Assembly (NCBI GenBank): GCA_012522575.1
Contig: JAAYKE010000049.1
Span: 2,445 to 66,444 of the forward strand
Source: Armatimonadota bacterium
GTDB taxonomy: Bacteria > Armatimonadota > UBA5829
Reading direction: 5' to 3'
DNA length: 64,000 nt
This document shows positions 35,925 to 51,225 of this stretch, piece by piece (the first letter of the stretch is position 1; every line of letters starts with the position of its first letter). The translations under genes were made by a program, and so were the position numbers. The notes under the pieces were generated by a model that made no database searches, was not told the origin of the DNA, and saw only the letters and a program-made list of their open reading frames with translations.

Positions 35925-38678
35925 ATGGACTATAGCAAAACCGTAAACCTGCCCAGGACGGACTTCCCGATGAAGGCAAACCTGCCGAACAGGGAGCCGG
36001 AATTCCATAAATACTGGGAAGAGCACGAGATTTATAACAAGATATCCCAACGCGACGACGCCAAAGGGACGTTTGTATTCCACGATGGCCCGCCCTATTC
36101 TAACGGCGATATTCACATGGGACATGCGCTCAATAAGTCCCTTAAGGATTTCATTGCGCGTTATAAGGCGATGACCGGCTATCGAGTGCCGTATATCCCC
36201 GGCTGGGATAATCACGGGCTGCCCATCGAACAGAAAGTGGCCGAGGAGTTCCGCAAGAAGAAGCAGAATCCGAGCAAGCTGGAACTGCGTAAAGCGTGCC
36301 GCATCTATGCCGAAAAATGGGTCGGAATCCAGCGTGAGCAGCTCAAAAGGCTGGGGCTTCTCAGCGATTGGGATCACCCATATCTCACCATGAGCCGCGA
36401 ATATGAGGCCACAATCATCAAAGTGTTTGGCGAGATGATGGAGAAGGGCTATATCTACCGCGGGCTTCGGCCAATTTACTGGTGCACCAACGACGAAACC
36501 GCGCTTGCCGAAGCGGAGATCGAATATGCCGACCATACCTCGCATTCGATATTCGTTCGCTTCCCGCTAGTGTGTGACCCAAATGGCATATTCGAGCGCA
36601 AAGAAAACGCTTATACGATAATCTGGACGACGACTCCTTGGACCATCCCGGCCAACCTGGCGGTTGCGGTTCACCCGGACTATGAATATGCCGTTGTGGA
36701 TGTCGCAGGGGATCGTTATCTTATAGCAGCCGAGCTTGTCAGTCGGACGATGGAAGCCGCCGAGGTGGCCGAATATTGCGTCGTCAAGACCGTCAAGGGC
36801 AGCGAACTTGAAGGGCTGGTGTTTAAGCACCCTATTTATGATCGTGAATCCGTGCTGACCCACGCCAACTATGTCACGCTGGAAGATGGAACCGGCATTG
36901 TTCATACCGCGCCGGGACATGGCCGCGAAGACTTTGAGACCGGCAAAAAGTATGGATTGGAAGCGCTGAACCCGGTTGATGAGCGGGGCTACTTCACCGA
37001 GGCCGCCGGACAGTTCGAAGGGCTTCACATTACCAGGCAGGGCAATCAGGCGGTTATCGACGCGATGCGAGAAAACGGCTCTCTGATGGCCGAAAGCAGC
37101 ATAACCCACAGCTACCCGCACTGCTGGAGGTGTCATAAGCCGGTAATATTCCGAGCGACTGAGCAGTGGTTCGTGAGCATCGACCACGACGATTTGCGAA
37201 AGCGCATTCTTAATGAGATCGAATCATCGGTGAGGTGTTTCCCGAAGGAGGGTCGCAATCGACTGTATGCGATGATCGAAAGTTCTCCGGACTGGTGCTT
37301 GTCCAGACAGCGGTCGTGGGGAGTGGCGATCCCGGTGTTGTTCTGTGACGCCTGCCGCGAACCGGTGTTGAGCAAGGATGTCATTGATCTTGTCTATGCG
37401 GATGCGCTGGAAAACGGGTCGGACTCGTGGTTCGAGAAAGATGCCTCGGAGTTTGTGCCGGCAGGGTTCAAATGCGCAGTCTGCGGATGCGAAACATTCG
37501 TCAAAGAAGAGGATGTCCTGGATGTGTGGTTCGATTCCGGGTCGAGCTGCAGAGCCGTGACTGAGCGCCTATATGGTGACTTTGTAGCGGATGTATATCT
37601 GGAAGGCTCAGACCAGCACAGGGGCTGGTTCAACAAGTCGATCATAGTCGGGACCGCAACGAAGGGCGCGTCTCCGTTCAAGGATCTGGTCACACACGGC
37701 TATGTGCTGGACGCCGAAGGCAAGAAGATGAGCAAGTCCGGCGGCAATACGATTGCTCCAAAGGAAGTAACCAAGCATTTCGGCGCGGATATTCTCAGAT
37801 TGTATATCTCATCGCTGAACTATTTTGAGGATGTGCGGTTTGGACAGGAGATGTTCACCCGTGCGGTGGACGCATACAGGCGCATCCGCAACACGTTCAG
37901 GTTCATTCTGGGCAATTTGTCTGACTTTGACCCGGATAACGACGCCGTTGATTATGCGGATATGCCTGAGATCGATAAATTCGCTCTGCATCGGCTTGCC
38001 GAGTTCACCGCCGAAGTGACAAAGGCTTATGAAGTCTATGAGTTTCATAAGGTCTACCATGCGGTGCACAATTACTGCGCGGTGGATTTGAGCGGGTTCT
38101 ATCTGGATGTGCTCAAGGACAGGCTCTATGCATCCGCGGCGGACTCCGATGAGCGTCGCTGTGCTCAGAGCGCTTTGTATCATATATTATCCGTTCTGAC
38201 GCGGGTTGTGGCTCCCGTGCTGGTGCATACATCCGAAGAGGCCTGGCTGGCTATGCCGGGTGAATCCAAAGCGGAGTCGGTGCATCTGGCTCCGTTCGCT
38301 GAGGCGGACTCACGGTGGATCGATTCCGAGCTTGCCGGGCGATGGGGACGCATACTCGAAGTGCGCGACCGTGTGCTGGCGGCTTTGGAAGAAGCAAGGC
38401 AGTCCGGGGCCATAGGCAAGCCGCTGGAGTCCAGGATTATAGTCTCCGCAGAGGATGAACTGCTCGCGTTTTTGAAGGGATATGAGGGCATTCTTCCATC
38501 GGTCTTTATAGTATCACAGGTAGAGCTAAGGCAAGCCGATGAGTTGGCTGTCGAAGTGCAGGCTCCTGCGGGCGCAAAGTGCGCGAGGTGCTGGCTGGTG
38601 CTCGAATCAGTCGGCACAAACGAGGAACACCCGGAACTGTGCAGCCGGTGCGCAGAAGCAATAGCACACTCTCACTGA
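35925..38678 (+). CDS. ileS: Isoleucine--tRNA ligase (bacterial type 1 with a C-terminal zinc finger)
   Basis: 'PPYSNGDIHMGHALNK' (HIGH), 'KMSKSGGN' (KMSKS), C-terminal 'CARCW....CSRC'. Confidence 0.95.
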   Translation: MDYSKTVNLPRTDFPMKANLPNREPEFHKYWEEHEIYNKISQRDDAKGTFVFHDGPPYSNGDIHMGHALNKSLKDFIARYKAMTGYRVPYIPGWDNHGLPIEQKVAEEFRKKKQNPSKLELRKACRIYAEKWVGIQREQLKRLGLLSDWDHPYLTMSREYEATIIKVFGEMMEKGYIYRGLRPIYWCTNDETALAEAEIEYADHTSHSIFVRFPLVCDPNGIFERKENAYTIIWTTTPWTIPANLAVAVHPDYEYAVVDVAGDRYLIAAELVSRTMEAAEVAEYCVVKTVKGSELEGLVFKHPIYDRESVLTHANYVTLEDGTGIVHTAPGHGREDFETGKKYGLEALNPVDERGYFTEAAGQFEGLHITRQGNQAVIDAMRENGSLMAESSITHSYPHCWRCHKPVIFRATEQWFVSIDHDDLRKRILNEIESSVRCFPKEGRNRLYAMIESSPDWCLSRQRSWGVAIPVLFCDACREPVLSKDVIDLVYADALENGSDSWFEKDASEFVPAGFKCAVCGCETFVKEEDVLDVWFDSGSSCRAVTERLYGDFVADVYLEGSDQHRGWFNKSIIVGTATKGASPFKDLVTHGYVLDAEGKKMSKSGGNTIAPKEVTKHFGADILRLYISSLNYFEDVRFGQEMFTRAVDAYRRIRNTFRFILGNLSDFDPDNDAVDYADMPEIDKFALHRLAEFTAEVTKAYEVYEFHKVYHAVHNYCAVDLSGFYLDVLKDRLYASAADSDERRCAQSALYHILSVLTRVVAPVLVHTSEEAWLAMPGESKAESVHLAPFAEADSRWIDSELAGRWGRILEVRDRVLAALEEARQSGAIGKPLESRIIVSAEDELLAFLKGYEGILPSVFIVSQVELRQADELAVEVQAPAGAKCARCWLVLESVGTNEEHPELCSRCAEAIAHSH

Positions 38679-38761
38679 GTGCAATCCGGACATATTCACG
38701 CGCTAAATATAACCGCAAGCCGGGATAAATTGGTCAATGAAATGATTGGAGCCTGAACAGC

Positions 38762-39277
38762 TTGGATCGAAAAAATACGATATTGTTCTATTCGACGGCA
38801 GCGGATGTGGCGGTTATAGATCAGTTGACCAAGTATCTGGCGCGGCAGAACCTCGCGTCCGGCAAGCCTGTGGAGGTGATCGCGGGTCTGCTTGACCTCC
38901 CCCTCAACTTCAACACGGGGGCTGCGTTCGGTCTGCTGCCGGATTGGGCGCCGCTGCTCATAATCATGGCCCTTGTGGCGATATTCATAATCGTAAAACT
39001 GCGCGGCGTTGGCGGCGGTTCTTTGCCTGTTTCGATTGGCCTTGGCCTGCTGCTGGGCGGTGCGATTGGCAACCTCATCGACCGCATCGCATTCCCCGCT
39101 CGCGGCGTGACCGATTTTATCGATATCCACATATTTGTTAAAGGTCAGACGCACGCCTGGCCTACTTTCAATATCGCGGATGTCGGGATAGTGGTCGGCG
39201 CGATTCTGGTTTTGTTTCACGTATATATCCTCGAAAGGATGAGAATGGATGATGGAGACACAGAGGCCGCAGATTGA
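38762..39277 (+). CDS. lspA: Lipoprotein signal peptidase (signal peptidase II)
   Basis: 'NFNTGAAFGLL', 'GNLIDR', 'FNIADVGIVVG' conserved blocks; conserved position downstream of ileS. Confidence 0.85.
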   Translation: MDRKNTILFYSTAADVAVIDQLTKYLARQNLASGKPVEVIAGLLDLPLNFNTGAAFGLLPDWAPLLIIMALVAIFIIVKLRGVGGGSLPVSIGLGLLLGGAIGNLIDRIAFPARGVTDFIDIHIFVKGQTHAWPTFNIADVGIVVGAILVLFHVYILERMRMDDGDTEAAD

Positions 39278-39752
39278 GATAGAGCCGACACCGATTGATC
39301 GAGTGGTGGATACGCTGGCGATGATAGGGCTGTTGTATATGGTGGCGATAACCGTGATCTATTATCCGCAGCTTCCGGCGACCATTCCCACGCATTTCGA
39401 TCTTGCAGGCAAAGTCGACGGCTGGGGATCAAAGTTGACCCTGTCGTTTTTGCCTGTGATAAGCGCGGTCTTTTATTTCGCTTTATCTACGATCACCCGT
39501 TTTCCGCACATATATAACTATCCCGTGCCGATAACCGCGGAGAACGTCGAGAAGCAGTATCGAATCGGAATATCGATTATGCGATGGCTGAAGATGGAGT
39601 TCGTGTGCATTTTCGCATTTCTGACTCAGCAGATAATCGCTGCGGCTCAGGTGAAACATCTTTCGATGCAGCCGTGGGTTCCGATGTTGTTTGTGGCGGC
39701 GATACTGATTACATCGGCTGTGCATATAGTGTTGGCTTATCGCGCGAAGTAG
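39249..39752 (+). CDS. DUF1648 domain membrane protein
   Basis: 'IPTHFDLAGKVDGWGSK' is the DUF1648 signature; four predicted TM helices. Confidence 0.5.
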   Translation: MMETQRPQIEIEPTPIDRVVDTLAMIGLLYMVAITVIYYPQLPATIPTHFDLAGKVDGWGSKLTLSFLPVISAVFYFALSTITRFPHIYNYPVPITAENVEKQYRIGISIMRWLKMEFVCIFAFLTQQIIAAAQVKHLSMQPWVPMLFVAAILITSAVHIVLAYRAK

Positions 39753-39761
39753 TATTGTTTC

Positions 39762-40523
39762 ATGCATAGTACCCTGTTTAAGATATTTGGATTTCCGGTG
39801 CACTCCTATGGCCTGATGATGGTCGTTGGGTTTGCGCTTGGGCTGTGGCGCGCGAGCAGAATATCGAAGAAGCGATATGGAATTGAGCCGGATCGGGTCT
39901 ATGATATGGCCCTGACGCTGCTGATCAGCGGCATAGTGGGATCGCGAATCGTATTTGTGCTCATTAACCCGGACACGGAGAGCTGGAAGGATATGCTGTC
40001 GGTGTGGCAGGGCGGACTAAGTTTCCACGGCGGGCTGATCAGCGCGATGGTTGCAGGAGCTATTTATGCGCGTATTGCGAAGCTGAATTATTGGGTTTGC
40101 GCTGATCTGTTCTCCCCTTCGCTGACGATTGGCTATGCCTGCACTCGAATCGGATGTTTTTTGAACGGCTGCTGCTATGGCGCGCCCACCAATCTGCCCT
40201 GGGGAATGAGATTCCTCGATGAAGGCTTCCTGACTCCGCCCTCTCACCCCACCCAACTCTATGCTGTCGGCGCAAATATTCTGATCCTGTGGGCGTTGAT
40301 TAGGTTGGAGAAGCTGCGCCGAAAGCCCGGTTTCGTATTTGTCGGATATGTCGGGCTTTACTCCATATACAGATTTCTGATCGAGTTTTTGCGCAGCGGA
40401 TATACCGCCAAACTGCTCGCGTTCGGGCTGACTGAGGCGCAGTGGGTAAGCCTGGCGGCCATATTAGCCTCGGCTGTTTTGATGCTCACGGTGTATCGCA
40501 ATCCCCTCAAATCTTCACAATAG
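39762..40523 (+). CDS. lgt: Prolipoprotein diacylglyceryl transferase
   Basis: 'GFPVHSYGLMMVVGFALG', 'GGLSFHGGLI', 'R.GCFLNGCCYG' Lgt signature blocks. Confidence 0.85.
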   Translation: MHSTLFKIFGFPVHSYGLMMVVGFALGLWRASRISKKRYGIEPDRVYDMALTLLISGIVGSRIVFVLINPDTESWKDMLSVWQGGLSFHGGLISAMVAGAIYARIAKLNYWVCADLFSPSLTIGYACTRIGCFLNGCCYGAPTNLPWGMRFLDEGFLTPPSHPTQLYAVGANILILWALIRLEKLRRKPGFVFVGYVGLYSIYRFLIEFLRSGYTAKLLAFGLTEAQWVSLAAILASAVLMLTVYRNPLKSSQ

Positions 40524-40605
40524 ACGATCTCATACTTCGAAGAACGAGATATTTCTGCAATTCGACGCCGATTTAATCCATACTCAGGTCATCAACTGAC
40601 AATTT

Positions 40606-40628
40606 TTGACATAGCCGTATGCTATAAT
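40606..40628 (+). promoter_or_regulatory. Putative sigma70-type promoter with an extended -10 (TGcTATAAT) upstream of the E2-like gene
   Basis: TTGACA at 40606-40611 and TGCTATAAT at 40620-40628; the spacer is short (11 nt), so the extended -10 would have to compensate. Confidence 0.3.
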
Positions 40629-40723
40629 ACCGGTGGGCGGTTGCGGATAAATCAACATCCATCTATAGCCATAATACTCATATAGTAAAAGAATATTGAG
40701 CGATAGATCGGCAAGGGTCGAAT

Positions 40724-41227
40724 ATGAATGTCAGACAACGCAGACTCAACTCGGATTTCCAGGCGCTCATCGAGCTTTCCCGCGACAATCCGCTTATTGA
40801 TTTTGATATATTAAGCAACAACAAGGACAGATATGTAGTGATTTATCGATGCAGAGGTCTGCATTGGCTGCCGGGTCGTCCGCGTCCATCCGTTGCTAAT
40901 CTGCATCGTATGGAAATTTATCTTCACCTGGACTACCCGCGCCTGCCTCCGCAACTGCAGTGGCTGACCGATATTTTCCATCCCAACATCCTGCCTCCTT
41001 CGATGAACGGCGGGGTATGCATAGGCAAATGGACCCCGGCGGAATCTCTGGACAGGCTGGTGGTGCGTCTCGGGGAGATGGTGCAGTATAAAAACTATAA
41101 CACAAAGGATCCCATGAACCTGCAAGCGGCCGCTTGGGCGGAAGAGAACTCCTCGTCGCTGCCCGTAGACAACAGGCCGCTGACAAATCATTCTAACCCT
41201 TTGGACATAGGCATAGGAGCGCAATAA
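40724..41227 (+). CDS. Ubiquitin-conjugating enzyme (E2/UBC)-like protein, copy 1
   Basis: 'DIFHPNILPPSMNGGVCIGKWTPAESL' matches the UBC active site (HPN, then the catalytic Cys, then the downstream Trp/Pro); the N-terminal 'RRLNSDFQAL' matches UBC helix 1. Confidence 0.7.
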   Translation: MNVRQRRLNSDFQALIELSRDNPLIDFDILSNNKDRYVVIYRCRGLHWLPGRPRPSVANLHRMEIYLHLDYPRLPPQLQWLTDIFHPNILPPSMNGGVCIGKWTPAESLDRLVVRLGEMVQYKNYNTKDPMNLQAAAWAEENSSSLPVDNRPLTNHSNPLDIGIGAQ

Positions 41228-41228
41228 A

Positions 41229-42167
41229 ATGTCATTTCGGTGTGGAAGGTATTTGCTGTTAGTTATTTGTTTGGGTGTTTTGTTTATCAGTTGCGTGTTC
41301 GCCGACGCCAGAGATGTGGTGGATAAAGTGGGCGATGCAGTGGTAAGCATAGAATGTGATACTCCCGCCGGCGTTTCGGGAGGTTCGGGCGTATTAGTAA
41401 ACCCGGACGGCTACATTCTGACCAACGCTCACGTCATTGATAAAGCAAAAAAAGTGCGGATTAAAATGACGGATGAGAAGCAGTTGAGCGCGAAGGTGGT
41501 GGCTAAAGACAACGAAAATGACCTTGCGATCATCCGCATCAATATCCGAAACCTGCCGGTGGCGGTTATCGGCAACGCGAAGAACGCCAAATCCGGGGAC
41601 AGCGTGGTTGCGATAGGCAGTCCCAAAGGGCTGGATCATACCGTCACCAGCGGGATTGTATCCAAAAGCGACAGAGTAATAAACGGACGCCATTATATTC
41701 AAACCGACGCAGCCCTCAACGAAGGCAACAGCGGTGGCCCGTTGCTGAACGAAAATGGGGAAATTATTGGCATCAATACAATGATTCATAAGAATGCCAA
41801 TCAACTTGGGTTTGCGATTCCCATAAATACGGCTTATGAACTGCTGAACAAAAATAATGTGGCTGTGCTCACGCCGCTGGATAATGAAGAACTTGCAAAG
41901 ACCAAATTGCCAGCCAACAAGACAGAGGGAGCAGGCAGACCATCGACCAAAAAGCCGGGCTGGATTTTATATGTGATTTTGGGAGTGGTTGCGGCGGCTG
42001 TTGCAGCAACCGTTGTGATACTGATTAGAAAGCGCAAAGCGCGAAAGCGGCAGGGAGGTAATGAGGGAGCGCTGGATATCACCCTGCATCCAAAGCTGGC
42101 ACAGGCTCAGCCGGCTGGCCAGGATAACGCCGACGACGGCGATGATTTGGAAATAGAACTGAAATAG
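41229..42167 (+). CDS. Membrane-anchored trypsin-like (S1/HtrA-type, no PDZ) serine protease with an acidic C-terminal tail
   Basis: 'ILTNAHVI' (His), 'NDLAIIRI' (Asp), 'GNSGGPLLN' (Ser) triad blocks; TM helix 'WILYVILGVVAAAVAATVVILI'; ends '...DDGDDLEIELK'; the start lies 1 nt after the E2 stop. Confidence 0.7.
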   Translation: MSFRCGRYLLLVICLGVLFISCVFADARDVVDKVGDAVVSIECDTPAGVSGGSGVLVNPDGYILTNAHVIDKAKKVRIKMTDEKQLSAKVVAKDNENDLAIIRINIRNLPVAVIGNAKNAKSGDSVVAIGSPKGLDHTVTSGIVSKSDRVINGRHYIQTDAALNEGNSGGPLLNENGEIIGINTMIHKNANQLGFAIPINTAYELLNKNNVAVLTPLDNEELAKTKLPANKTEGAGRPSTKKPGWILYVILGVVAAAVAATVVILIRKRKARKRQGGNEGALDITLHPKLAQAQPAGQDNADDGDDLEIELK

Positions 42168-42192
42168 AAACAGAGAGGAGATACACAAGATT

Positions 42193-42462
42193 ATGGGAAA
42201 AGTGGATGTCACGATTATTGACGCTACGGGAAACAAGGAGCAGCAGGCCTCGCTGCCGGACGATGCGCCGGTGAGGAGAATTATCGCCAGGCTGACGGAG
42301 ATGATGCAACTGCCGGCAACCGATCCGGGCGGACAGATGTTGAGCTACAAGTTTCAGCATAAGGCGTCCGGCACGCAGCTTACCGATGATCAGACCCTTG
42401 CCGATGCAAACGTAAAAGATGGGGACGTGCTGCGGATGCTGCCGGAGATTACTGCAGGATGA
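42193..42462 (+). CDS. Ubiquitin-like beta-grasp protein (Ubl) with a C-terminal Ala-Gly
   Basis: 89 aa; ends '...LRMLPEITAG*'; the stop overlaps the E1 start (ATGA); RBS 'GAGAGGAG' upstream. Confidence 0.6.
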   Translation: MGKVDVTIIDATGNKEQQASLPDDAPVRRIIARLTEMMQLPATDPGGQMLSYKFQHKASGTQLTDDQTLADANVKDGDVLRMLPEITAG

Positions 42463-43730
42463 TCGACGATACAGATGATCTCGGCATTGAACTGATCGGC
42501 GACGACGCCGTTGCGCCGGATGCCCAACAGCCGAAACAGGCGGACGAACAAAAGTTGGTGTCAACCGAGGAGGAAGAGGATCGCTACAGCCGTTTCCGAC
42601 TGATTCCGTGGTGGGATCAGGAGTTGCTTAAACGGACGCGCGTGCTGGTAGTTGGAGCGGGTGCGCTCGGCAATGAGATTCTCAAAAATCTTGCCCTGCT
42701 GGGAGTCGGCAAGATATTTCTGATCGATTTGGATCGGATAGAGAACTCCAACTTGTCCAGGTCGGTGCTTTACAGGCTGTCGGATGAGGGATCCGGCAAA
42801 GCGGAAGTAGCTGCGCGGTCGGCGATGGAGATCAACCCTGACATTACCGTGCATCCGTTTATGGGCAATATCGTGCACGATGTGGGCCTGGGTGTGTTCA
42901 GATCAATGGATGTGGTGATCTGCGGACTGGATAATCGAGAGGCGAGGCTGTGGGTCAACCAGTGCTGCTGGCGGGTGAACAGGCCGTGGATCGACGGAGC
43001 TATAGAGGTATTGCACGGCATAGTGCGAGTGTTCGTCCCGCCTGATGGCGCGTGTTATGAATGCACAATGAACGACACCGACTATGAGATGCTGCGGCGG
43101 CGAAAGTCCTGCGCTCTGCTGACCAGAGAACAGATGCTGGAAGGCAAAGTGCCGACCACGCCAACCATATCATCGGTAATCGCGGGAATACAGTGTCAGG
43201 AGGCCGTAAAACTGGTTCACGATCGCCCTGAGCTACCGGTGCTTGAGGGAAAGGGATACTTCTTCAACGGATTGACCCATGACTCATTTGTGGTGAATTA
43301 TACCCGCAAGCAGGATTGTTTGAGCCATGAGACCTTTGAAAACATCAAGGAGATGGACTGGCGGGCGCAGGACCTGACCTTGAGGCAGGCTCTCGAACAT
43401 ATTCGAGCGGATCTCGGAGACGAAGCGGCTCTGGAGCTTAACCGCGAAATTGTATATGAGATGACCTGTGAGCAATGCGATGTCTCGGTTCCGACTTCGA
43501 TGCTGCTGGGGAAGATGACCGAAGCCGATGCCGCTTGCCCGAAATGCCGCGAAGTGATGGCTTTGGAGATGTGTCACAGCGTCTCCGGAGACGAGGCGTT
43601 TGTTGACAAGACCTTCGCCGAAATAGGGCTGCCCGCATTTGACATAGTTGCGGGCAGGTGCGGGATGGAAGAAAGGTACTATGAGTTGAGCGGTGACAGG
43701 GCAAAGATGCTCGGCGACATCGCGGATTGA
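42459..43730 (+). CDS. E1-like ubiquitin-activating enzyme (ThiF/MoeB/HesA family) with a C-terminal CxxC zinc module
   Basis: 'RVLVVGAGALGNEILKNLALLGVGKIFLIDLDRIENSNLSRS' adenylation Rossmann fold; C-terminal 'CYEC', 'CEQC', 'CPKC' pairs; N-terminal acidic 'DDTDDLGIELIGDD'. Confidence 0.8.
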   Translation: MIDDTDDLGIELIGDDAVAPDAQQPKQADEQKLVSTEEEEDRYSRFRLIPWWDQELLKRTRVLVVGAGALGNEILKNLALLGVGKIFLIDLDRIENSNLSRSVLYRLSDEGSGKAEVAARSAMEINPDITVHPFMGNIVHDVGLGVFRSMDVVICGLDNREARLWVNQCCWRVNRPWIDGAIEVLHGIVRVFVPPDGACYECTMNDTDYEMLRRRKSCALLTREQMLEGKVPTTPTISSVIAGIQCQEAVKLVHDRPELPVLEGKGYFFNGLTHDSFVVNYTRKQDCLSHETFENIKEMDWRAQDLTLRQALEHIRADLGDEAALELNREIVYEMTCEQCDVSVPTSMLLGKMTEADAACPKCREVMALEMCHSVSGDEAFVDKTFAEIGLPAFDIVAGRCGMEERYYELSGDRAKMLGDIAD

Positions 43731-44707
43731 GCAAAAAAAGAACGGGTGGGAAGGCTATGACTGCAGAGGATAGACACAATGATGCAGATATTGAGCTTAT
43801 TGTAACCGAAAATCGGCCCAGCGGCGCGATGGATTGTCCGGACATCCGGATCGACCCTGAAGTAGATAAGCAGATACAGACCTTCGCAAAAACAGACACC
43901 GGCAAAGAGTTGGGAGGAGTGCTGCTTGGGGAGCTTATCGCTGATTCCGTAATCCCGCAGGTGAGAATCAAGGCCGCTATTGAGGCCAAACATACGGAAG
44001 CCGTTCAGACAAGCGTCAAATTCACCCACGATACCTGGGACGACATCAACCGGGTCAAGGATGAAAAATATCCGGATATGCGGATAGTCGGGTGGTTCCA
44101 CACTCATCCCGGCTTTGGCATATTCCTGTCGCGGTGGGATATGTTTATCCAGGAAAACTTCTTTAATCTGCCGTGGCAGGTGGCCTATGTGGTCGATCCT
44201 GTCGGTAAAACGAGCGGGTTTTTCCGGTGGGAAAACGGCAAAGTTGCTCAGGTCGGCAAGAAAAAAGAAATTGCGCCTCCTATTGAGGTCACGCTTCCGA
44301 AAGTGGAAAAAGTCGGCAGGTCATTTAACTGGGGAACGGTATTCTCTGTTGTCTTGAACGTTGCGCTGATTGCGGCCGTGGTATATCTTGGCCTGTTCAA
44401 GCCTCCGGAGGTTCGGGTTGAGGAGAAAATCGTAACCGAAGAAGCGCCGGTTAACGTTGAGCGGCAATCGACAACTGAGATGACCGAGCAAGCGCAGACG
44501 TGGACGGAATATGTTGTGCAGAGGGGGGATTCTTTCTGGTCGATAGCCAAGAATTGTTATGGAGAGGGTGAATTATATACCGCTATCCAACTCTTCAACA
44601 ATATGCCCGATAAAAAGGTACTGCACACAGGGGAGCGCTTGCGGCTGCCGTCCAAAGAGATCGCCGTTACGATGCTTGACAAGAGGATCAGACCAGGGAT
44701 TGATTAA
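43727..44707 (+). CDS. JAB/MPN (JAMM) metalloprotease fused to a TM segment and a C-terminal LysM domain
   Basis: 'E..AV' glutamate plus 'WFHTHPGFGIFLSRWD' (HxHx7Sx2D); TM helix 'VFSVVLNVALIAAVVYLGLF'; LysM 'YVVQRGDSFWSIAKNCYG....AIQLFNNMPDKKVLHTGERLRLP'. Confidence 0.75.
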   Translation: MSKKRTGGKAMTAEDRHNDADIELIVTENRPSGAMDCPDIRIDPEVDKQIQTFAKTDTGKELGGVLLGELIADSVIPQVRIKAAIEAKHTEAVQTSVKFTHDTWDDINRVKDEKYPDMRIVGWFHTHPGFGIFLSRWDMFIQENFFNLPWQVAYVVDPVGKTSGFFRWENGKVAQVGKKKEIAPPIEVTLPKVEKVGRSFNWGTVFSVVLNVALIAAVVYLGLFKPPEVRVEEKIVTEEAPVNVERQSTTEMTEQAQTWTEYVVQRGDSFWSIAKNCYGEGELYTAIQLFNNMPDKKVLHTGERLRLPSKEIAVTMLDKRIRPGID

Positions 44708-45301
44708 ATGCGTTCGTCTGTCGGCAAAACGTGTCCATATTGCCAGTATCCCATCAAGCCGGATGAGCCGGTAATCGAGTGCAGTCATTGCGGCATGCCG
44801 CATCATAGGGCTTGCTGGGAATATAACCGCGGGTGTACGACTTATGGCTGCAGCGGAGTGCAGCGGCATGGCAGATTGCCCGTTGCAGGCAATCAGCAGG
44901 GGTCTGATCATATCGACCTTACAGACATAATGCACGAGCCGGAACAGCCGACTCCATACTATCCGCAACAACCGGGATACCAGCCCGCGGAATCGGAAGC
45001 TCCGCTTTTAGCGACATCGAACTCATTAGCGGGCAGCGGAGGAGTGATTGGAGCGATAATCGGAGGATTTATCGGTCTGAGCGGCGGGTGCGCAGGCTGC
45101 ATTCCCGGCGCAATTTTCGGTTTTATCATAGGCGCCTTGATCGGCGGGTTTATGCTCTATGGCATTATAATAACTGTGACCAGCGGGATTGGGTATATGT
45201 TCGGATCAGTCGGCGGGCAGGACGCGGCTATCGGCGGAGCGGCAATCGGGCTGATAGTCGGAGTCATAATAATCGTAATCGGTTGCTGCAAGCAGGCATG
45301 A
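44708..45301 (+). CDS. PHD/RING-like binuclear zinc-finger protein (paralog 1) with a glycine-zipper membrane C-terminus; candidate E3
   Basis: N-terminal 'CPYCQYPIKPDEPVIECSHCGMPHHRACWEYNRGCTTYGC' (C-x2-C-x12-C-x2-C-x3-HH-x2-C-x6-C-x4-C); the C-terminal half is GxxxG-rich and hydrophobic. Confidence 0.55.
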   Translation: MRSSVGKTCPYCQYPIKPDEPVIECSHCGMPHHRACWEYNRGCTTYGCSGVQRHGRLPVAGNQQGSDHIDLTDIMHEPEQPTPYYPQQPGYQPAESEAPLLATSNSLAGSGGVIGAIIGGFIGLSGGCAGCIPGAIFGFIIGALIGGFMLYGIIITVTSGIGYMFGSVGGQDAAIGGAAIGLIVGVIIIVIGCCKQA

Positions 45302-45339
45302 CGATTCATACAAGATCAAGATAGCAGGAGGTTTGATCT

Positions 45340-45939
45340 ATGGCTAATACAGTGGCCGGACCCGCAATAGCCGGCAAGACATGTCCGTTTTGTCAGACTC
45401 CGATAAAACCAAATGAACCTGTGCACATTTGTGACCAGTGCAATATCCCGCATCACCAGGATTGCTGGCGGGAAAATGGCGGCTGCACGACTTTCGGGTG
45501 CAGGGGAGCCAATGCAGCACGCCCAATCATCCCGCAACGAGCTTACGACGATCACTCTCAACCAGTCCAACAGCAGCCCTATTTTCAACCAAATCAGCAA
45601 CCCGGATACGGTAATCAATATCAACAACATTATCAATATGCGCCCGATGTGCCGCCTGAAATAATGGGCAAGCTCAACTGGGGAGCATTTCTTTTGCCTT
45701 TCTTTTGGGCGATAGCCCACAATGTGTGGATCGGACTCTTAATACTGGTTCCCTACGTTGGATGGGTTATGCATTTTGTTCTGCTGTTCAAGGGCAACGA
45801 ATGGGCGTGGAGAAATCGCAGATTCCAGAGCGTTCAACATTTCAACGAAGTGCAAAATGCCTGGGTGATAGCGGGACTCATATTGTTCTTCGGGTCGATA
45901 GTGTTCGTTTTTATATTAATGTCACTGGCGTACGCTTAG
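45340..45939 (+). CDS. PHD/RING-like zinc-finger membrane protein (paralog 2); candidate E3
   Basis: 'CPFCQTPIKPNEPVHICDQCNIPHHQDCWRENGGCTTFGC' has the same ligand spacing; a Gln/Pro/Tyr-rich linker; two or three C-terminal TM helices. Confidence 0.55.
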   Translation: MANTVAGPAIAGKTCPFCQTPIKPNEPVHICDQCNIPHHQDCWRENGGCTTFGCRGANAARPIIPQRAYDDHSQPVQQQPYFQPNQQPGYGNQYQQHYQYAPDVPPEIMGKLNWGAFLLPFFWAIAHNVWIGLLILVPYVGWVMHFVLLFKGNEWAWRNRRFQSVQHFNEVQNAWVIAGLILFFGSIVFVFILMSLAYA

Positions 45940-45962
45940 TTTAGTCAAGTTAGCTGAAATCC

Positions 45963-46847
45963 ATGACCGGCAAGCTCTGTCCATATTGTCAAAATCGTAT
46001 TACGTCGGGGAGCGCGGTTACTGCCTGCCCTGCCTGCAACACTCCGCATCATAGCGAGTGCTGGAACTACAATGGCGGGTGCACGACTTTTGGGTGCCGA
46101 TATATGCCCGGAGCAAGTGCGCATTCTTCAGCACAAGCATACGATGCATACGATGACCTGGATATAGAGCTTTATCCTCCGGGTGGCGGGTATCCGCCTT
46201 CGCGAAGCGGTCATGTGGAGCAGCAACACTACCGGCAGAGCCAGCCCAGGTCAAAGAATTCGTGGTTGTGGGCGATTATTTCGATAACTGCGTTTCTGGG
46301 CATGGTCGCCATTATGATAAGCACGACATTCAATAACCCGACGAATGCATCTTACATGAAACGCGCCATAAAATGCGTCAATCAAGAGCAGTATGAAACT
46401 GCAAAAACCTACTGTAATCTGGCTATTGAACAGGACCCCGAGTGTATGGAGGCATATTATCTGAAGGGCACATTGCTGCTGGAGCTTTGCAATTGGCGGC
46501 ACAACAACATTGAGGTGTGGATGAACCAGGCCAGACACGGTAACACTGAGCGGTTCGATGCGGCAGATGAGTGCTTTAGGCAATGTATCAGGTTCGCGCC
46601 AACTGATACGACTGAATATAACAAATATCTGAAGCTGGATAACTCTGAGATTGTGAGCCGGGCGTATGTCCACCTGGCGATGACGGCAACTCTGCGGATG
46701 CTGGCTAATTATGATGCCAATCGTATGAACGACGCGCTACTATGGGCCAGAATCGCGCGGCAATATCTTAACAAGGTGACATATTACCACCTTGGAACGG
46801 AGTATTACGAACTGGCAGATGCCCTGCAAAAGTTTGTGCCCGGTTAA
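45963..46847 (+). CDS. PHD/RING-like zinc-finger membrane protein (paralog 3) with a C-terminal TPR-like helical domain; candidate E3
   Basis: 'CPYCQNRITSGSAVTACPACNTPHHSECWNYNGGCTTFGC'; one TM helix 'WLWAIISITAFLGMVAIMI'; TPR-like 'YETAKTYCNLAIEQDPECMEAYYLKGTLLLE'. Confidence 0.55.
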   Translation: MTGKLCPYCQNRITSGSAVTACPACNTPHHSECWNYNGGCTTFGCRYMPGASAHSSAQAYDAYDDLDIELYPPGGGYPPSRSGHVEQQHYRQSQPRSKNSWLWAIISITAFLGMVAIMISTTFNNPTNASYMKRAIKCVNQEQYETAKTYCNLAIEQDPECMEAYYLKGTLLLELCNWRHNNIEVWMNQARHGNTERFDAADECFRQCIRFAPTDTTEYNKYLKLDNSEIVSRAYVHLAMTATLRMLANYDANRMNDALLWARIARQYLNKVTYYHLGTEYYELADALQKFVPG

Positions 46848-46897
46848 GATACGCAGCGGCTTAATATACTTGATCAACACAACTGGAGACGATATAT

Positions 46898-47467
46898 ATG
46901 AACCCTAGAATGATGCGTCTGAATGCCGATTACGAGAAGATCAGGACGGAATTTCTCGGCCATAGATATGTTACGGTCGAACCGATGGGTTCGCTGCCGC
47001 CTGAGAGATATAGAATCACATATCGAGTGCCGGGGCTGCGATGGGATAGCTTCGGCAACAGGCCGATTGTCGTCAACGAACATGTCGCGGAGATATATCT
47101 TCACGCTGATTACCCGCGTCAAACGCCAAAAGCTACCCTCAAAACCCCGATTTGGCACCCGAACTTTGGCACATATATCTGCATTGGAGATCACTGGGCG
47201 GCAGGAGAGACGCTGGTGGATATAATCGTGCAGATTGGGGATATGATTCAATATAAGTCCTACAATCCCAAGAGTCCGCTCAATGCAAATGCCGCGATAT
47301 GGTCGATGCAAAACCAGCATCTCTTCCCGGTAGGGACGATCGATATCCTGCAGCCGGAACCGGAGGTGGAGTTTGGCGGCGCAAGCGCAGATGTTGAGGA
47401 GGATGACCTTGGAATTGTGCTGGGGCCAAGCTCCGATAACGATGATCTGGAGATAGAATTCAAATGA
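46898..47467 (+). CDS. E2/UBC-like protein, copy 2, with an acidic C-terminal tail
   Basis: 'PIWHPNFGTYICIGDHWAAGETL' HPN...C motif; N-terminal 'MRLNADYEKI'; ends '...DNDDLEIEFK'; RBS 'GGAGACG' upstream. Confidence 0.7.
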   Translation: MNPRMMRLNADYEKIRTEFLGHRYVTVEPMGSLPPERYRITYRVPGLRWDSFGNRPIVVNEHVAEIYLHADYPRQTPKATLKTPIWHPNFGTYICIGDHWAAGETLVDIIVQIGDMIQYKSYNPKSPLNANAAIWSMQNQHLFPVGTIDILQPEPEVEFGGASADVEEDDLGIVLGPSSDNDDLEIEFK

Positions 47468-48231
47468 CACGGCCAGATGACGCCGGCAATCAAAAAATTG
47501 AAGTGACACTGGACGAGCCGGTCGATACGCCTGAGCAGGGATCAAATAGACCGCAAGGGGAATCGGAAGGCGCGATTCCACCGGGAGCCGTTGAGGTCTA
47601 TATAGACAAGGCTGTGCTTGAATCGACCTGGGAGCATGTGCTCACAAACAGGCGCACCGAGCTTGGCGGAGTGCTGATTGGGCGGCGCAGGGAAGCGGAC
47701 GGAACCTTTACGCACATCACAAACTGGCTTGACGCGAGGCACACGACCACCACCTCCGGCAGCCTGACATTCACACACGATGCCTGGGCCGATATAGCGC
47801 AACGAATGAGCGATATGGATCCGGATGACAAAATTGTCGGATGGTATCATTCTCATCCCGGCCACGGCGTTTTTATGAGCGGCCAGGATAGATTTATCCA
47901 TAATAACTTCTTTGCCAATGACTGGCAGTGTGCGCTGGTGATTGACCCAATTAAAAACGACAGGGGATTGTTTCAATTAGTCAACGGACAGATTGTGCGC
48001 ACCGGGTATTGGTGTGTGCCCGACAAGCCGGTGTATGTGACTCAACAAGATAGTAAGCCCGTTGCCGTGGAAACGCCGCCGCAACAGGATGGGTTGCACG
48101 AAGCGGCAAGCGATTTTCTGGAAGCGGGAGATCATATCGCATCGGGAATAGAGAAATTCGTAAAATATTCTGCACAGCGCATACGCAATTCTAAAGGCCC
48201 GCTTGGCCGGAACATCGACAAAAAGGCGTAA
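47464..48231 (+). CDS. JAB/MPN (JAMM) metalloprotease, copy 2 (soluble)
   Basis: 'ELGGVLIG' glutamate plus 'WYHSHPGHGVFMSGQD' (HxHx7Sx2D); the start overlaps the E2 copy-2 stop (ATGA). Confidence 0.75.
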   Translation: MTRPDDAGNQKIEVTLDEPVDTPEQGSNRPQGESEGAIPPGAVEVYIDKAVLESTWEHVLTNRRTELGGVLIGRRREADGTFTHITNWLDARHTTTTSGSLTFTHDAWADIAQRMSDMDPDDKIVGWYHSHPGHGVFMSGQDRFIHNNFFANDWQCALVIDPIKNDRGLFQLVNGQIVRTGYWCVPDKPVYVTQQDSKPVAVETPPQQDGLHEAASDFLEAGDHIASGIEKFVKYSAQRIRNSKGPLGRNIDKKA

Positions 48232-48258
48232 GACATCGCGCTATAAGGAGCGACTGAG

Positions 48259-49344
48259 ATGAGCAACGACAAAATTGAAATCAGCTTTGACGATGAGGAC
48301 GAGCAGCCGAAGCCCCGGGAAAAGAAACTGATCATTACGAGCGATGACCTGCTCAACGTGCCCGACCCGCAGCCGCTTGCCGCACAGAAGCCTGTGGGGT
48401 TTGATGCGCCTGCGGATTCATATATGCAGTATCAGAAGAAACCATCGGCCTCAGCGGTGTCCGGTCACAGTATTATGCAGGGAGCAATCGCCGGGCTTAT
48501 TGGCGGTTTTTTGGCGTGGGCTGTCACTGAGCCTTTATTTGGGGACAATGTGGCCAGCAGCAATTTTGTCAGTATCATCGTTAAAATGGGTTTTTTCGGC
48601 GGACTGATCGGAGGGCTGATTGGCGGTTGCCTGGGAGCTGCGGATGGAGTTGTTTCAGGAGTTGCTGAAAAGGCGTTCAAGGCCGGCGCAATTGGCTTGG
48701 GGATCGGAATGGGCGGCGGTTTTCTGGGCGGAGTTTTTGGGCAGATTGTCTATGGCGCTCTGCTGCAATCGGGAGAACCCGGACTTGGCACATATATGGT
48801 GGCGCGAACAATCGGCTGGTCGGTGGTGGGTGTGTTCGTTGGGTTGGGACAGGGAGTAGGACGAGGCTCCGGCAAGCGCGTGACTAACGGTTTGCTGGGA
48901 GGTCTGGCTGGCGGTTTTATTGCAGGAATTCTGTTTGACCCAATTTCGGTTTTATTTGCTACCGGATTGTTGAGCCGACTCTTTGGAATCACGATACTCG
49001 GCGCTGCTGCCGGGCTGGCGGTCGGATTGGTGGAGGAAATGCGAAAGCAAGCCTGGTTATCTATAGTCAAAGGGCCGCTTGCGGGCAAGCAGTTTATTTT
49101 ATATGAACAAAGAACGAGAATTGGCAGTTCTCCCAAGTGTGAAATTAGTCTGGTAAAAGACCCGCAGGTGATGCCGGAACACATTGCCATAGATAATCAC
49201 GGCAGCAGTTTCAGCCTCAGCGCTCTTATGGGACAGGCGCTGGTGGACGGACGACCGGTACATCAAACCCGGCTGCAGGCGGGGAATATGATCACACTCG
49301 GTTCGACGTCGCTGCTCTTTGAGGAGAAGGCGATCGGTCAGTAG
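48259..49344 (+). CDS. Membrane protein with a glycine-zipper TM region and a C-terminal FHA-like domain
   Basis: N-terminal acidic 'KIEISFDDEDEQ'; GxxxG-rich hydrophobic core 'GAIAGLIGGFLAWAV...GGLIGGLIGGCLGAADG...GIGMGGGFLGGVFG'; C-terminal 'GKQFILYEQRTRIGSSPKCEISLVKDPQVMPEHIAID.....L.....ALVDGRPV....L..GNMITLGSTSLLFE' matches an FHA fold pattern. Confidence 0.55.
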   Translation: MSNDKIEISFDDEDEQPKPREKKLIITSDDLLNVPDPQPLAAQKPVGFDAPADSYMQYQKKPSASAVSGHSIMQGAIAGLIGGFLAWAVTEPLFGDNVASSNFVSIIVKMGFFGGLIGGLIGGCLGAADGVVSGVAEKAFKAGAIGLGIGMGGGFLGGVFGQIVYGALLQSGEPGLGTYMVARTIGWSVVGVFVGLGQGVGRGSGKRVTNGLLGGLAGGFIAGILFDPISVLFATGLLSRLFGITILGAAAGLAVGLVEEMRKQAWLSIVKGPLAGKQFILYEQRTRIGSSPKCEISLVKDPQVMPEHIAIDNHGSSFSLSALMGQALVDGRPVHQTRLQAGNMITLGSTSLLFEEKAIGQ

Positions 49345-49380
49345 ATATCTGACTAAGGAGCGATAAGGCCATTAACGCAG

Positions 49381-49500
49381 TCATCGGGAAAATCTGCCCT
49401 TTTTGCCAGACTCCTATAAAATCGGAGGACGATTGGGATTCGGATGACGACGACGATGGTTGGGATTCCGAGGAATATGATGATGACTGGGATTACTGAT
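49381..49500 (+). pseudogene. Fragment of a fourth zinc-finger paralog fused to an acidic Trp-rich tail (no ATG start)
   Basis: The in-frame translation '...GKICPFCQTPIKSEDDWDSDDDDDGWDSEEYDDDWDY*' carries only the first CxxC of the paralog motif; the upstream in-frame stop leaves no canonical start. Confidence 0.4.
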
Positions 49501-49526
49501 TTGGTTATAGGGTTGGGAGGGCTAAT

Positions 49527-50102
49527 ATGATCGCGCCTAGGCGCATTTTGGGCCTTATCTGCGGGGTGTGCGCGGTGATATTGGTCGTGGGATGCAGCGG
49601 TGGTAATTCATCCGCGCCTGCCGAGGGAAATCGGCCCCAGTCGCTGTTTAGCGCAGATTTGGCCGAACGACTGGACAGACACGATGCGCAAACCGGGGAT
49701 GTGCAGGCGAGTTTGATCTGGAATAACTACAACGACCTCGACTTGCACATTATTGATCCGAATGATGAACGGATATATTTCGCGCACAAACGGGCCAGGT
49801 CAGGAGGGGAACTCGATGTGGATATGAACGCGCGCGGTCGGGAATCTAATGAGCCGGTCGAAAACATCTATTTCCCGCAAGGCGGAGCGCCCGCCGGACG
49901 CTACAGGGTCTACGTTCATTACTATGCCAAGCACGACTCCGATAACCTCACCCCGTTCAGATGCGAAGTGCTGGTCAAAGATGAGGTGCATAAATTCTCC
50001 GGGGAGATGTCCAAAGGCGATCCGATCCGACTGATTTATGAATTCACACTGGAAGGCAAGCAGGAAAAACCAATTCCACTGCTGTTTTCACCGAGAAGAT
50101 AG
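49527..50102 (+). CDS. Lipoprotein of unknown function
   Basis: 'MIAPRRILGLICGVCAVILVVGCSGG' lipobox; conserved-looking 'LIWNNYNDLDLHIIDPNDERIYF....GGELDVDMN' beta-rich domain; RBS 'GGGAGGG' upstream. Confidence 0.5.
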   Translation: MIAPRRILGLICGVCAVILVVGCSGGNSSAPAEGNRPQSLFSADLAERLDRHDAQTGDVQASLIWNNYNDLDLHIIDPNDERIYFAHKRARSGGELDVDMNARGRESNEPVENIYFPQGGAPAGRYRVYVHYYAKHDSDNLTPFRCEVLVKDEVHKFSGEMSKGDPIRLIYEFTLEGKQEKPIPLLFSPRR

Positions 50103-50229: not shown

Positions 50230-50934
50230 TCAATAATTAAATGCCAGTGCTTTTCCAAAGCCCGCGTAAGGCACCTTCACAAAGAACGCCCCGGCAGCAT
50301 AGTAGCTGACGGCATATTGCTCTATCAAAAAAGTGACCCCGGCAGGAGTGATAACGAACTCCTTGGTCAGTTTGTCGCTGTCGGCGGTCACTGTCCCATC
50401 CTGCACCCAGGTCGCGTTTTGGTTGCTCTGAAGCTGCGCATAGACCCTCTCGCCCGCCAGCTTTTTTGCGTCCACTTCGGGTTTGAACAGATCTTGCAGG
50501 GCCAGCAGTTTCGGTTTACCGTTTATAACCCCGTAGTTCCTGCCGTGGAAGTAGGTCATGCCATGTGCTCCGCCGGTATAGGTATACTCGGTGAAGTATA
50601 GGCTGATGAGGTCGGGCCGGGCGATGGATACGGCAGGCTCAAGCACATAGGAGTAACGCAACGGAATATCTTTTCCCTCAAAGTCTTTCTTCATCTGGGC
50701 AAGGTCTTTTCGAAAAGCTTGAAGCCGTTCACCGGCGAACTTCAGCAGGTCAGCGTTTGCCGTTTTTATTACCGTGTCTGAGCCGGCAAACTGCGGATAA
50801 GTTACCTTTATCTCGGCATCTCCAGTTCTTATTGAAGCTATCTTTACGCCGAGCTTCTCCTGAGCTATAGACATCTGAAGCCCGGCAAGCGTAAGCACCA
50901 TACAAACCAAAGCTGTGCTAAATATGCGCTTCAA
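50230..50934 (-). CDS. DUF3298/DUF4163 (RsiV-like) domain secreted protein
   Basis: Signal peptide; 'TYTGGAHGMTYFHGRNY' is the DUF3298 hallmark. Confidence 0.55.
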   Translation of the reverse strand: MKRIFSTALVCMVLTLAGLQMSIAQEKLGVKIASIRTGDAEIKVTYPQFAGSDTVIKTANADLLKFAGERLQAFRKDLAQMKKDFEGKDIPLRYSYVLEPAVSIARPDLISLYFTEYTYTGGAHGMTYFHGRNYGVINGKPKLLALQDLFKPEVDAKKLAGERVYAQLQSNQNATWVQDGTVTADSDKLTKEFVITPAGVTFLIEQYAVSYYAAGAFFVKVPYAGFGKALAFNY

Positions 50935-51066
50935 GAGTGTGCCTCCTCATACATATCTTTCCAAGTAAGACCGCATGCGCGCCGTTGGATTTAGAGATAT
51001 CCGTCAAAACCCCGCCGGAACCCGACGAGGTCAATTTCGCATAGAGAACGGTTCTATTTTGATTAT

Positions 51067-51144: not shown

Positions 51145-51225
51145 ATCGACAATATTATATCACACACCACGCCCGTATAACAGGCTTGGTGACCCTCACT
51201 TTACATCATCCCAAAAGCGCGTCGA

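Follow-up and report, generated by a model that had tools for sequence, protein, structure and literature searches.

This paper deals with a small ubiquitin-like protein (Ubl) encoded by an Armatimonadota bacterium (assembly GCA_012522575.1, contig JAAYKE010000049.1, positions 2,445 to 66,444 of the forward strand). This stretch of 64,000 nucleotides was analysed as a whole and is referred to as the window, and all positions are given in its numbering. The open reading frame (ORF) 42193..42462 on the plus strand begins at an ATG and encodes MGKVDVTIIDATGNKEQQASLPDDAPVRRIIARLTEMMQLPATDPGGQMLSYKFQHKASGTQLTDDQTLADANVKDGDVLRMLPEITAG, followed by a stop codon. A first-pass annotation of this DNA had described a protein of 89 amino acids terminating in RMLPEITAG, and this product is present in the translated sequence, with the C-terminus ...VLRMLPEITAG and the TGA stop at 42460-42462.

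The Ubl gene is part of a cluster of 11 plus-strand genes extending from 40724 to 49344, which are separated by gaps of 0-50 nt or joined by 4-nt overlaps. Between 40724 and 48231, genes for the Ubl, a ThiF-type activating enzyme (E1), HPN-type UQ_con conjugating enzymes (E2), RING fingers and JAB/JAMM peptidases are found together on this one strand. The evidence presented here suggests, with a probability of about 0.8, that the Ubl serves as the modifier in a bacterial ubiquitination system of eukaryote-like type and that it is made in the mature form, without a pro-peptide. The observation of the first-pass annotation is real, and its interpretation is supported.

Conservation of the C-terminal Ala-Gly

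A database search identified 550 relatives of the Ubl, the best 120 of which are 72-100% identical to it; an identical sequence is present in the database from an Armatimonadetes metagenome-assembled genome (MAG). The sequence ...TAG was found in 120/120 of these best homologues, with 69 proteins ending right there and the others carrying tails, and in an alignment of 36 homologues both A88 and G89 are invariant. In a species-level scan with one genome per species, a relative was identified in 224 genomes, and the locus counts given in this paper use the best 80 loci. Every complete copy among these 80 contains PE[ITVL]TAG or a near variant. The gene stops directly at the glycine in 46/79 loci (~58%), and unconserved tails of 1-23 residues follow in 33/79 (~42%). 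When the codons of 79 sequences were compared (78 species-level loci and the window), all four codons for each of Thr, Ala and Gly were found in use at the last three positions, with the amino acids unchanged. This full synonymous variation at fixed amino acids indicates purifying selection on the terminus of the protein. An invariant glycine that is followed either by a direct stop or by variable tails is the signature of a conjugated modifier with the glycine as the reactive end.

The same terminus was identified in more distant proteins. A profile search of 1.84 billion representatives gave 1210 matches at E<=0.001, and the domains of divergent relatives still end in x-A-G (PEIVAG, PEMTAG, AEIIAG, PVMTAG and others); a polyubiquitin among the matches listed (P0223) ends in LRGG. 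Some relatives are natural fusions whose added part begins exactly after AG. Together, the invariance, the tails and the fusions after AG indicate that the bond following Ala-Gly is the point of processing and activation, and that Ala-Gly defines the family and is strongly selected for.

Among the fusions (P0140, P0154, P0172 and P0246), Ubl-PEITAG followed by a zinc ribbon and a transmembrane segment, a di-Ubl joined head to tail like the units of a polyubiquitin gene and a di-Ubl with a C-terminal domain were identified; some of the long fusion representatives may be gene-calling artefacts. A further arrangement involves a HINT domain, a class of domains which cleave the bond before their first cysteine via a thioester on the preceding residue. 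In the distant relative P0229 (L081, 8001-9527), a tandem di-Ubl is present, in which unit 1 ends in PKMTGG and unit 2 in ...PEMTAG, and a Pretoxin-HINT domain with the first residues CFPAG follows directly after the latter. By HINT chemistry at CFPAG, the reactive acyl group would sit on the same glycine, and at this Hedgehog/intein-type junction a Ubl-Gly thioester could form independently of any E1. The P0229 locus contains SIR2_2, EAD7 and nSTAND1 genes as well as another YukD di-Ubl, a conflict-system context.

The first-pass annotation had also proposed that conjugation of this Ubl would not require processing. For this gene the argument is sound, since the reading frame stops right after Gly89 and a pro-peptide is absent. 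The tails in ~42% of the orthologues indicate that a processing capacity has been kept in the family; the JABs encoded in the window would act mainly in deconjugation. A Gly-Gly terminus, which is not universal among conjugatable Ubls, is not present, and Ala-Gly was found throughout the family instead. The earlier remark that AG differs from the canonical GG is thus correct as far as the residues are concerned. The end is no oddity, because AG is invariant in the family and has a precedent in E. aridi BilA; given this invariance and the experimental precedent, the Ala-Gly end is not surprising on its own. A sortase signal was also considered for this C-terminus (LPEITAG compared to LPXTG) and rejected: the motif differs, the family consensus is LQPEITAG, and the protein has neither a signal peptide nor a hydrophobic/positive sorting tail.

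Fold of the Ubl and register with ubiquitin

A single-sequence AlphaFold model of the Ubl was obtained with a mean predicted local distance difference test (pLDDT) of 91.1 and a predicted TM-score (pTM) of 0.77, and shows the element order beta1-beta2-alpha-beta3-beta5 (beta-beta-alpha-beta-beta). A Foldseek comparison of the model with the PDB gave 539 matches at E<=0.001. The top matches are ubiquitin variants, Caldiarchaeum subterraneum ubiquitin (CsUb), SUMO1, NEDD8 and BilA (8tyx), with TM-scores of 0.65-0.86, and the matches to ubiquitin, CsUb, NEDD8, SUMO and BilA each have a probability of 1.00; the EccD1 Ubl domain (4kv2, 30% identity) is a lower-ranked match. A fold other than the beta-grasp had been named as a finding that would refute the first-pass annotation; with this pLDDT and the matches to the ubiquitin family, the beta-grasp fold was upheld.

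For the assignment of the terminal residues, phmmer and hhalign each pair residues 59-84 of the Ubl with residues 46-71 of ubiquitin. With residues 83-84 on ubiquitin 70-71, A88 and G89 correspond to ubiquitin G75 and G76, and the five-residue tail E85-I-T-A-G89 is in register with R72-L-R-G-G76 and of equal length. The description of Gly89 as a mature-type terminus is therefore confirmed by two independent alignments.

The E1 and its relation to ThiF and MoeB

The ORF following the Ubl codes for an E1 of 423 amino acids. Its N-terminal 40 residues are disordered and carry the sequence DDLGIEL. The GxGxxG motif, D158-R160-A162-R163, C199, S217-C218 and C287/H290 are kept in at least 95% of a 69-sequence set and N159 and E161 in at least 90%, while C202 is invariant in one alignment and kept in at least 90% in another. 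C218 is invariant, as are the zinc-ribbon cysteines C337, C340, C360 and C363 in an alignment of 60 sequences. A catalytic cysteine in the crossover loop is the arrangement of UBA5/MoeB-type enzymes. The model of the E1 has a pLDDT of 88.1; the match to UBA3 is full-length, over about 430 columns, and a core of ~250 residues matches ThiF and MoeB (TMt 0.84-0.89), which together describe a compact E1. Thus, the cognate E1 that a conjugatable Ubl needs, with its adenylation residues and C218, is present, as are E2s with HPN and catalytic cysteine.

Two disrupted E1 genes were identified in related loci. The E1 of L001 (5210-6478), the closest species-level relative, has an in-frame stop (TAA) at the position that aligns with R316, and that of L062 (10281-11457) is split into two overlapping ORFs. 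Both are probably MAG assembly errors; pseudogenisation is possible.

A C-terminal glycine encoded beside an adenylating enzyme is also what a sulfur carrier of the ThiS/MoaD type would present, for which the E1 would adenylate Gly89 on the way to a thiocarboxylate for cofactor or tRNA thiolation. The ThiF/MoeB-like core and the sub-threshold matches to the NCBIfam ThiF and MoeB models are in line with such a role. However, the ThiF match reaches 128 bits at a cutoff of 275, the matches to the MoeB models fall far short of their cutoffs, and the best PDB sequence matches of the E1 are the eukaryotic UBA7, UBA1 and UBA3, above MoeB and ThiF. Genes for a rhodanese, a cysteine desulfurase or a thiazole or molybdopterin synthase were not found in the cluster, which is composed of E2s, RING-type ligases (E3) and JAMM peptidases, and the terminus is AG, unlike the GG of sulfur carriers. 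A function as sulfur carrier is considered highly improbable.

Linkage of the Ubl and E1 genes

The ATG of the E1 at 42459-42461 lies within the tetranucleotide ATGA that also contains the Ubl stop codon, as the first-pass annotation had reported. Putative Shine-Dalgarno (SD) sequences precede both start codons (Table 1). The GGAG inside the Ubl gene is not universal in the orthologues, where CCG was found in 37/79 and GAG in 33/79 sequences. A promoter and terminator scan of the region 40400-49700 gave counts no higher than in shuffled sequences.

In 74/80 loci, an E1 gene is located directly 3' of the Ubl gene on the same strand, with contig ends accounting for three of the six exceptions. 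Among 69 loci in which the spacing could be scored, the two genes overlap in 11, are separated by 0-20 nt in 35, by 21-150 nt in 19 and by more than 150 nt in 4, so that the E1 overlaps the Ubl gene or starts within 20 nt of it in 46/69. In the tail-bearing orthologues L023, L028, L036, L052 and L053, it is the stop codon after the tail that overlaps the E1 start by 4 nt. Hence, the precise overlap is a local feature, and the tight linkage of the Ubl with a following E1 is general.

Translational coupling from the Ubl to the E1 is plausible from this arrangement. It could also be, at somewhat less than even odds, that the Ubl is conjugated but the ATGA reflects ordinary compact packing and the E1 is translated independently from its own GGAG. 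This GGAG is present 11 nt before the E1 ATG, identical 4-nt overlaps were identified at E1/JABa and E2b/JABb, and the E1 start overlaps the Ubl gene in only the 11 loci mentioned, compared to 23 with a gap above 20 nt. Against packing alone stand the near-universal and mostly tight order of Ubl and E1 and the return of the 4-nt overlap behind the tails of the five orthologues named above.

Other components of the cluster

The features of the cluster are listed in Table 1.

Table 1. Genes and sequence elements of the Ubl cluster, with positions in the window
Feature	Position	Strand	Basis
E2a, soluble UBC-fold ubiquitin-conjugating enzyme	40724..41227	+	Pfam UQ_con 41.7 bits
HtrA/trypsin-like serine protease, signal-like N-terminus, one transmembrane anchor	41229..42167	+	Pfam Trypsin_2 119 bits; NCBIfam DegP/HtrA core
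SD-like AGGAG, 12 nt 5' of Ubl ATG	42176..42180	+	read from sequence
Ubl, 89-aa beta-grasp modifier ending ...LPEITAG	42193..42462	+	Pfam YukD 54.5 bits, structure model, invariant A88/G89
GGAG within Pro84-Glu85 codons, possible internal SD, 11 nt 5' of E1 ATG	42444..42447	+	sequence
ATGA, E1 start/Ubl stop overlap of 4 nt	42459..42462	+	sequence; same in L001, L003, L004
E1, ThiF/MoeB/UBA5-type adenylation core, crossover-loop Cys218, C-terminal Zn-ribbon domain	42459..43730	+	Pfam ThiF 184.6 bits
JABa, JAMM metallopeptidase, one transmembrane helix (205-223), extracytoplasmic LysM	43727..44707	+	Pfam JAB 42.7, LysM 29 bits
RING1, prokaryotic RING finger and glycine-zipper transmembrane segments	44708..45301	+	Pfam Prok-RING_1 40.5 bits; hydrophobic segments
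RING2, prokaryotic RING finger and transmembrane segments	45340..45939	+	Pfam Prok-RING_1 38.1 bits; hydrophobic segments
RING3, RING finger, DDLDIEL (residue 65), transmembrane 102-120, TPR repeats	45963..46847	+	Pfam Prok-RING_1 42.3 bits, TPR_1
E2b, second UBC-fold E2, C-terminal tail with DDLGIVL and DDLEIEFK	46898..47467	+	Pfam UQ_con 35.9 bits
JABb, second JAMM peptidase, soluble; 4-nt overlap with E2b	47464..48231	+	Pfam JAB 45.4 bits
FHA protein, multi-pass membrane, C-terminal FHA (Yop-YscD_cpl)	48259..49344	+	Pfam Yop-YscD_cpl 46.8, FHA 27.4 bits

The best PDB matches of E2a are canonical eukaryotic E2s with HPN and the catalytic cysteine aligned; across 49 orthologues, H86-P87-N88 and C99 are conserved to at least 95%. 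For E2b, the same level of conservation was found for H87-P88-N89 and C95 among 47 orthologues, and the motif in its tail is also conserved. Both JAMM peptidases retain their active-site residues in at least 95% of the orthologues: E61, H125, H127, S135 and D138 for JABa (30 orthologues), and E66, H129, H131, S139 and D142 for JABb, which form the full JAMM motif E..HxH..S..D. In the RING proteins, the RING finger is N-terminal to the transmembrane segments. The FHA membrane protein is present in many related loci.

The protease contains hydrophobic segments at residues 9-27 and 246-264; the second transmembrane helix is followed by RKRKARKR and a short cytosolic tail ending in DDLEIELK. H68, D98 and S168 as well as D306, I309 and L311 of the tail show at least 95% conservation across 32 orthologues. 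With the signal-like N-terminus and the transmembrane helix followed by RKRKARKR, the protease domain is predicted to be extracytoplasmic and is unlikely to act on the Ubl. This agrees with the earlier claim that the trypsin-like protease is not needed for Ubl processing, since a catalytic domain outside the cytoplasm would not meet the Ubl.

In total, six of the 11 gene products are predicted membrane proteins, namely the protease, JABa-LysM, RING1-3 and the FHA protein, and the Ubl, E1, E2a, E2b and JABb are soluble. With these six proteins, the system looks tethered to the cytoplasmic membrane, with LysM, protease and TPR domains facing the envelope.

An acidic, beta-strand-like motif, [DE][DE][LI]x[IV]x[LF], was identified at the disordered termini of several cluster proteins: DDLEIELK in the protease (42141-42164), DDLGIELI in the E1 (42471-42494), DDLDIELY in RING3 (46149-46172) and DDLGIVL...DDLEIEFK in E2b (47402-47464), with less strict copies close to the N-termini of the FHA protein and of both JABs. 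It occurs with 5 strict matches in 2,812 cluster residues compared to 2 looser matches in 20,785 residues of background ORFs, and is conserved across phyla at the C-termini of the protease and E2b. The motif resembles a SUMO-interacting motif and may be the site by which the components dock to the Ubl or to a shared hub.

Distribution and genomic context

The cluster recurs in dozens of genomes. The Ubls of the best 80 loci are 64-90% identical to that of the window and derive from Armatimonadota, Bacillota, Ignavibacteria/Bacteroidota, WS1, Abditibacteriota and 'Zipacnadia', with Syntrophomonadaceae, Gelria, Anoxynatronum and Clostridiaceae as carriers among the Bacillota. A minimal form consisting of Ubl, E1 and RING genes with unrelated neighbours was identified in the Ignavibacteria/Bacteroidota loci L054-L058, L060-L063, L066-L068 and L072-L080 (checked with Pfam in L062), and many Ubls of this form carry tails.

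Two of the hosts are cultured. In Clostridium taeniosporum (CP017253.2, cluster at about 1.480-1.487 Mb; L082, 6727-12594), the Ubl ends in ...PEITAGA and the E1 starts 1 nt later; the cluster also codes for a fusion of an E2 with the FHA membrane protein (574 amino acids), a trypsin-like protease, a RING protein and a JAB-LysM protein. The fusion speaks for a functional partnership between the E2 and the FHA protein. The second cultured host is Anoxynatronum buryatiense (L069), with a Ubl ending in ...PEITAGS.

In the window, the cluster is preceded by ileS, lspA, a DUF1648 gene and lgt (35925-40523) and followed on the opposite strand by a PdaC/DUF3298 gene and holA (50230-52422). Flanking genes are common only to L003 and L004, which indicates that the Ubl cluster is a self-contained module in differing contexts. 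A conserved housekeeping context was rejected, as ileS-lspA-lgt are common to these two loci only. A mobile or phage origin was also considered, and a tblastn search with the Ubl gave no match among 50,697 phage and 72,556 plasmid records.

Relationship to YukD

By sequence, the Ubl belongs to the Pfam family PF08817 (YukD), with a score of 54.5 bits at a cutoff of 27, which passes the gathering threshold; the matches to Rad60-SLD and ubiquitin are weaker and sub-threshold. PF08817 is also the precomputed assignment of all 120 homologues listed, and the name given to homologues at NCBI is 'EsaB/YukD family protein'. YukD/EsaB and the EccD Ubl domain share with the Ubl this Pfam family, the beta-grasp fold and an FHA-domain partner. 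YukD itself serves type VIIb secretion as a structural subunit and is not conjugated (PMC1779556, PMC12637312), whereas the Ubl of the window has an invariant exposed glycine and is encoded beside genes for E1, E2, E3 and deubiquitinase. The window thus holds a Ubl of the YukD family together with a membrane protein that has an FHA domain, and in the type VIIb system the FHA domains of YukB are bound by YukD (PMC12637312). An ancestral partnership of Ubl and FHA protein may be common to both.

The Ubl could accordingly be a non-covalent adaptor of the YukD/EsaB type, for example for the FHA domain encoded at 48259-49344, with the conserved C-terminus as a binding epitope. The family assignment and the naming of the homologues would agree with this, as would the non-covalent binding shown for B. 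subtilis YukD and the conservation of the FHA-domain membrane protein within the cluster. However, an epitope explains neither the exact end at glycine in 58% of the genes nor the unconserved tails in the rest, and it also leaves the fusions and the HINT autoprocessing domain starting exactly after AG unexplained. The linkage to an E1 in 74/80 loci and the catalytically intact E2s, RINGs and JAMM peptidases alongside also speak against an adaptor. When the PDB was searched with a profile of the Ubl, ubiquitin and CsUb were found, and YukD (2bps) was not retrieved at E<=1. Membership in the functional YukD/EsaB class was rejected, since components of the type VII secretion system (T7SS) were not found among the 11 cluster genes and the seven flanking genes scanned. 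Altogether, an adaptor function is regarded as unlikely, and a conjugated modifier remains the preferred reading.

Comparison with known conjugation systems

Prokaryotic E1-E2-RING-JAB systems with YukD-like Ubls were reportedly predicted computationally by Burroughs, Iyer and Aravind (Mol Biosyst 2011). This class reportedly comprises the same set of a YukD-family Ubl, E1, HPN E2, Prok-RING_1 E3 and JAB in one operon. This kind of system has therefore already been predicted, and the cluster in the window is a further member. PMC5654768 and PMC7159879 refer to the 2011 study for 'complete operons' and tri-ligase systems. In our literature searches, no paper was found on this Ubl family or its terminus, and on YukD-like conjugation nothing beyond Iyer et al. 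2006.

In architecture, the nearest biochemically reconstituted relative is the Caldiarchaeum operon (Ub/E1/E2/srfp/Rpn11; PMC5654768, PMC6043591), which likewise comprises a Ubl, E1, HPN E2, RING and JAMM peptidase and relies on activation of a terminal glycine. CsUb is among the best structural (6fno, 6fj7) and profile matches of the Ubl. Rpn11 cleaves its pro-form, and a construct with the stop codon directly behind the terminal glycine gives a ubiquitin active with the E1 (PMC5654768). While CsUb has Gly-Gly and a pro-peptide of 9 residues that Rpn11 must remove (PMC5654768), the Ubl of the window has Ala-Gly without a pro-peptide, and it belongs to Pfam YukD whereas CsUb belongs to the ubiquitin family. 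Compared with the Caldiarchaeum operon, the cluster has E2 and JAB genes in pairs, three RINGs located in the membrane, and in addition genes for a protease and an FHA protein.

For the Ala-Gly terminus, BilA is the nearest precedent. The mature E. aridi BilA ends in Ala-Gly (A96-G97) after removal of one following residue by BilC, and is conjugated to lysines by its E1 and E2; in BilA homologues, the conserved glycine is followed by 0-9 variable residues (PMC10557695). BilA (8tyx) and the Ubl model superimpose with TM-scores of 0.71/0.76. The Bil system differs from the one described here in that it has no RING E3 and its E2 motif is CEHH instead of HPN (PMC11354881). In addition, the Bil E1 has a separate CYS domain, whereas the cysteine of the window E1 is in the crossover loop, and Bil is a defence operon, whereas the window cluster is without phage or plasmid homologues. 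Membership in Bil or CBASS was examined with PADLOC and rejected, as the Ubl and both E2s gave no match to BilA or BilB; the E1 and JAB matches are weak and generic, with BilD at 34.5 bits, under many generic E1-E2 models, and BilC at 14.1 bits.

Proposed function and implications

As modifier, the Ubl would be bound at its beta-grasp body by the E1 encoded downstream, which would adenylate the carboxylate of Gly89 and take over the Ubl as a thioester on Cys218 of the crossover loop. From there it would be handed to the catalytic cysteine of either HPN-type E2 (C99 or C95), and the three membrane-anchored RINGs would direct its transfer to target lysines at the cytoplasmic face of the membrane. 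The two JAMM peptidases would take the Ubl off again and, in the ~42% of orthologues with a tail, would also expose Ala-Gly. By the ATGA overlap, synthesis of the E1 might be tied to ribosomes finishing the Ubl, with less E1 than Ubl being made. Adenylation, thioester formation and conjugation are proposed on the basis of the established E1-E2-E3 mechanism, and the targets and the coupling are putative as well.

Several points weigh against a conjugated modifier. The best Pfam match of the Ubl is YukD, the founding member of which is a non-conjugated subunit of the type VIIb system. Papers on 'PEITAG' were not found in a full-text search of the literature. Only a minority of loci have the exact ATGA overlap, which recurs in the nearest relatives of the window (L001, L003 and L004). 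An adjacent E2 or JAB was not seen in the three-gene form of the Ignavibacteria; here, either these enzymes are encoded elsewhere, or this is a variant which works differently. Finally, the penultimate residue is glycine in ubiquitin, NEDD8, SUMO, SAMPs, ThiS and MoaD, and alanine here. In UFM1 (Val-Gly), ATG8/LC3 (Phe-Gly) and ATG12, the penultimate residue is not glycine, and only the terminal glycine is required for adenylation by the E1; these are other Ubl families with other E1/E2 pairs (UBA5, ATG7), and ATG8 is attached to lipid.

Bacterial Ubl conjugation has been shown biochemically in three systems only, namely CBASS Cap2, Bil and Bub. None of these has a RING E3 or a canonical HPN E2, and the cluster described here has both. 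As the Ubl is encoded in its mature form, it could enter an E1 assay directly, without a processing step. With orthologues available in the cultured C. taeniosporum and A. buryatiense, the prediction of YukD-like conjugation from 2011 becomes directly testable.

More tentatively, the cluster might represent a chromosomal, non-defence tagging system tethered to the membrane, in which the RINGs, the JAMM-LysM protein, the HtrA-like protease and the FHA protein would couple the state of the envelope to tagging at the inner face, with assembly by the DDLxIEL docking peptide. This role is a doubtful one at present; if true, it would make the system a bacterial counterpart of receptor-linked ubiquitin signalling or of signalling of the type known from endoplasmic reticulum-associated degradation (ERAD), kept at 64-90% identity in at least four phyla. 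With this identity between phyla, the Ubl is conserved almost as strongly as ubiquitin. The interest of the system lies in this cross-phylum conservation, in its membrane-tethered machinery and in its cultured hosts, and it bears on the question of how the E1-E2-RING architecture arose before eukaryotes.

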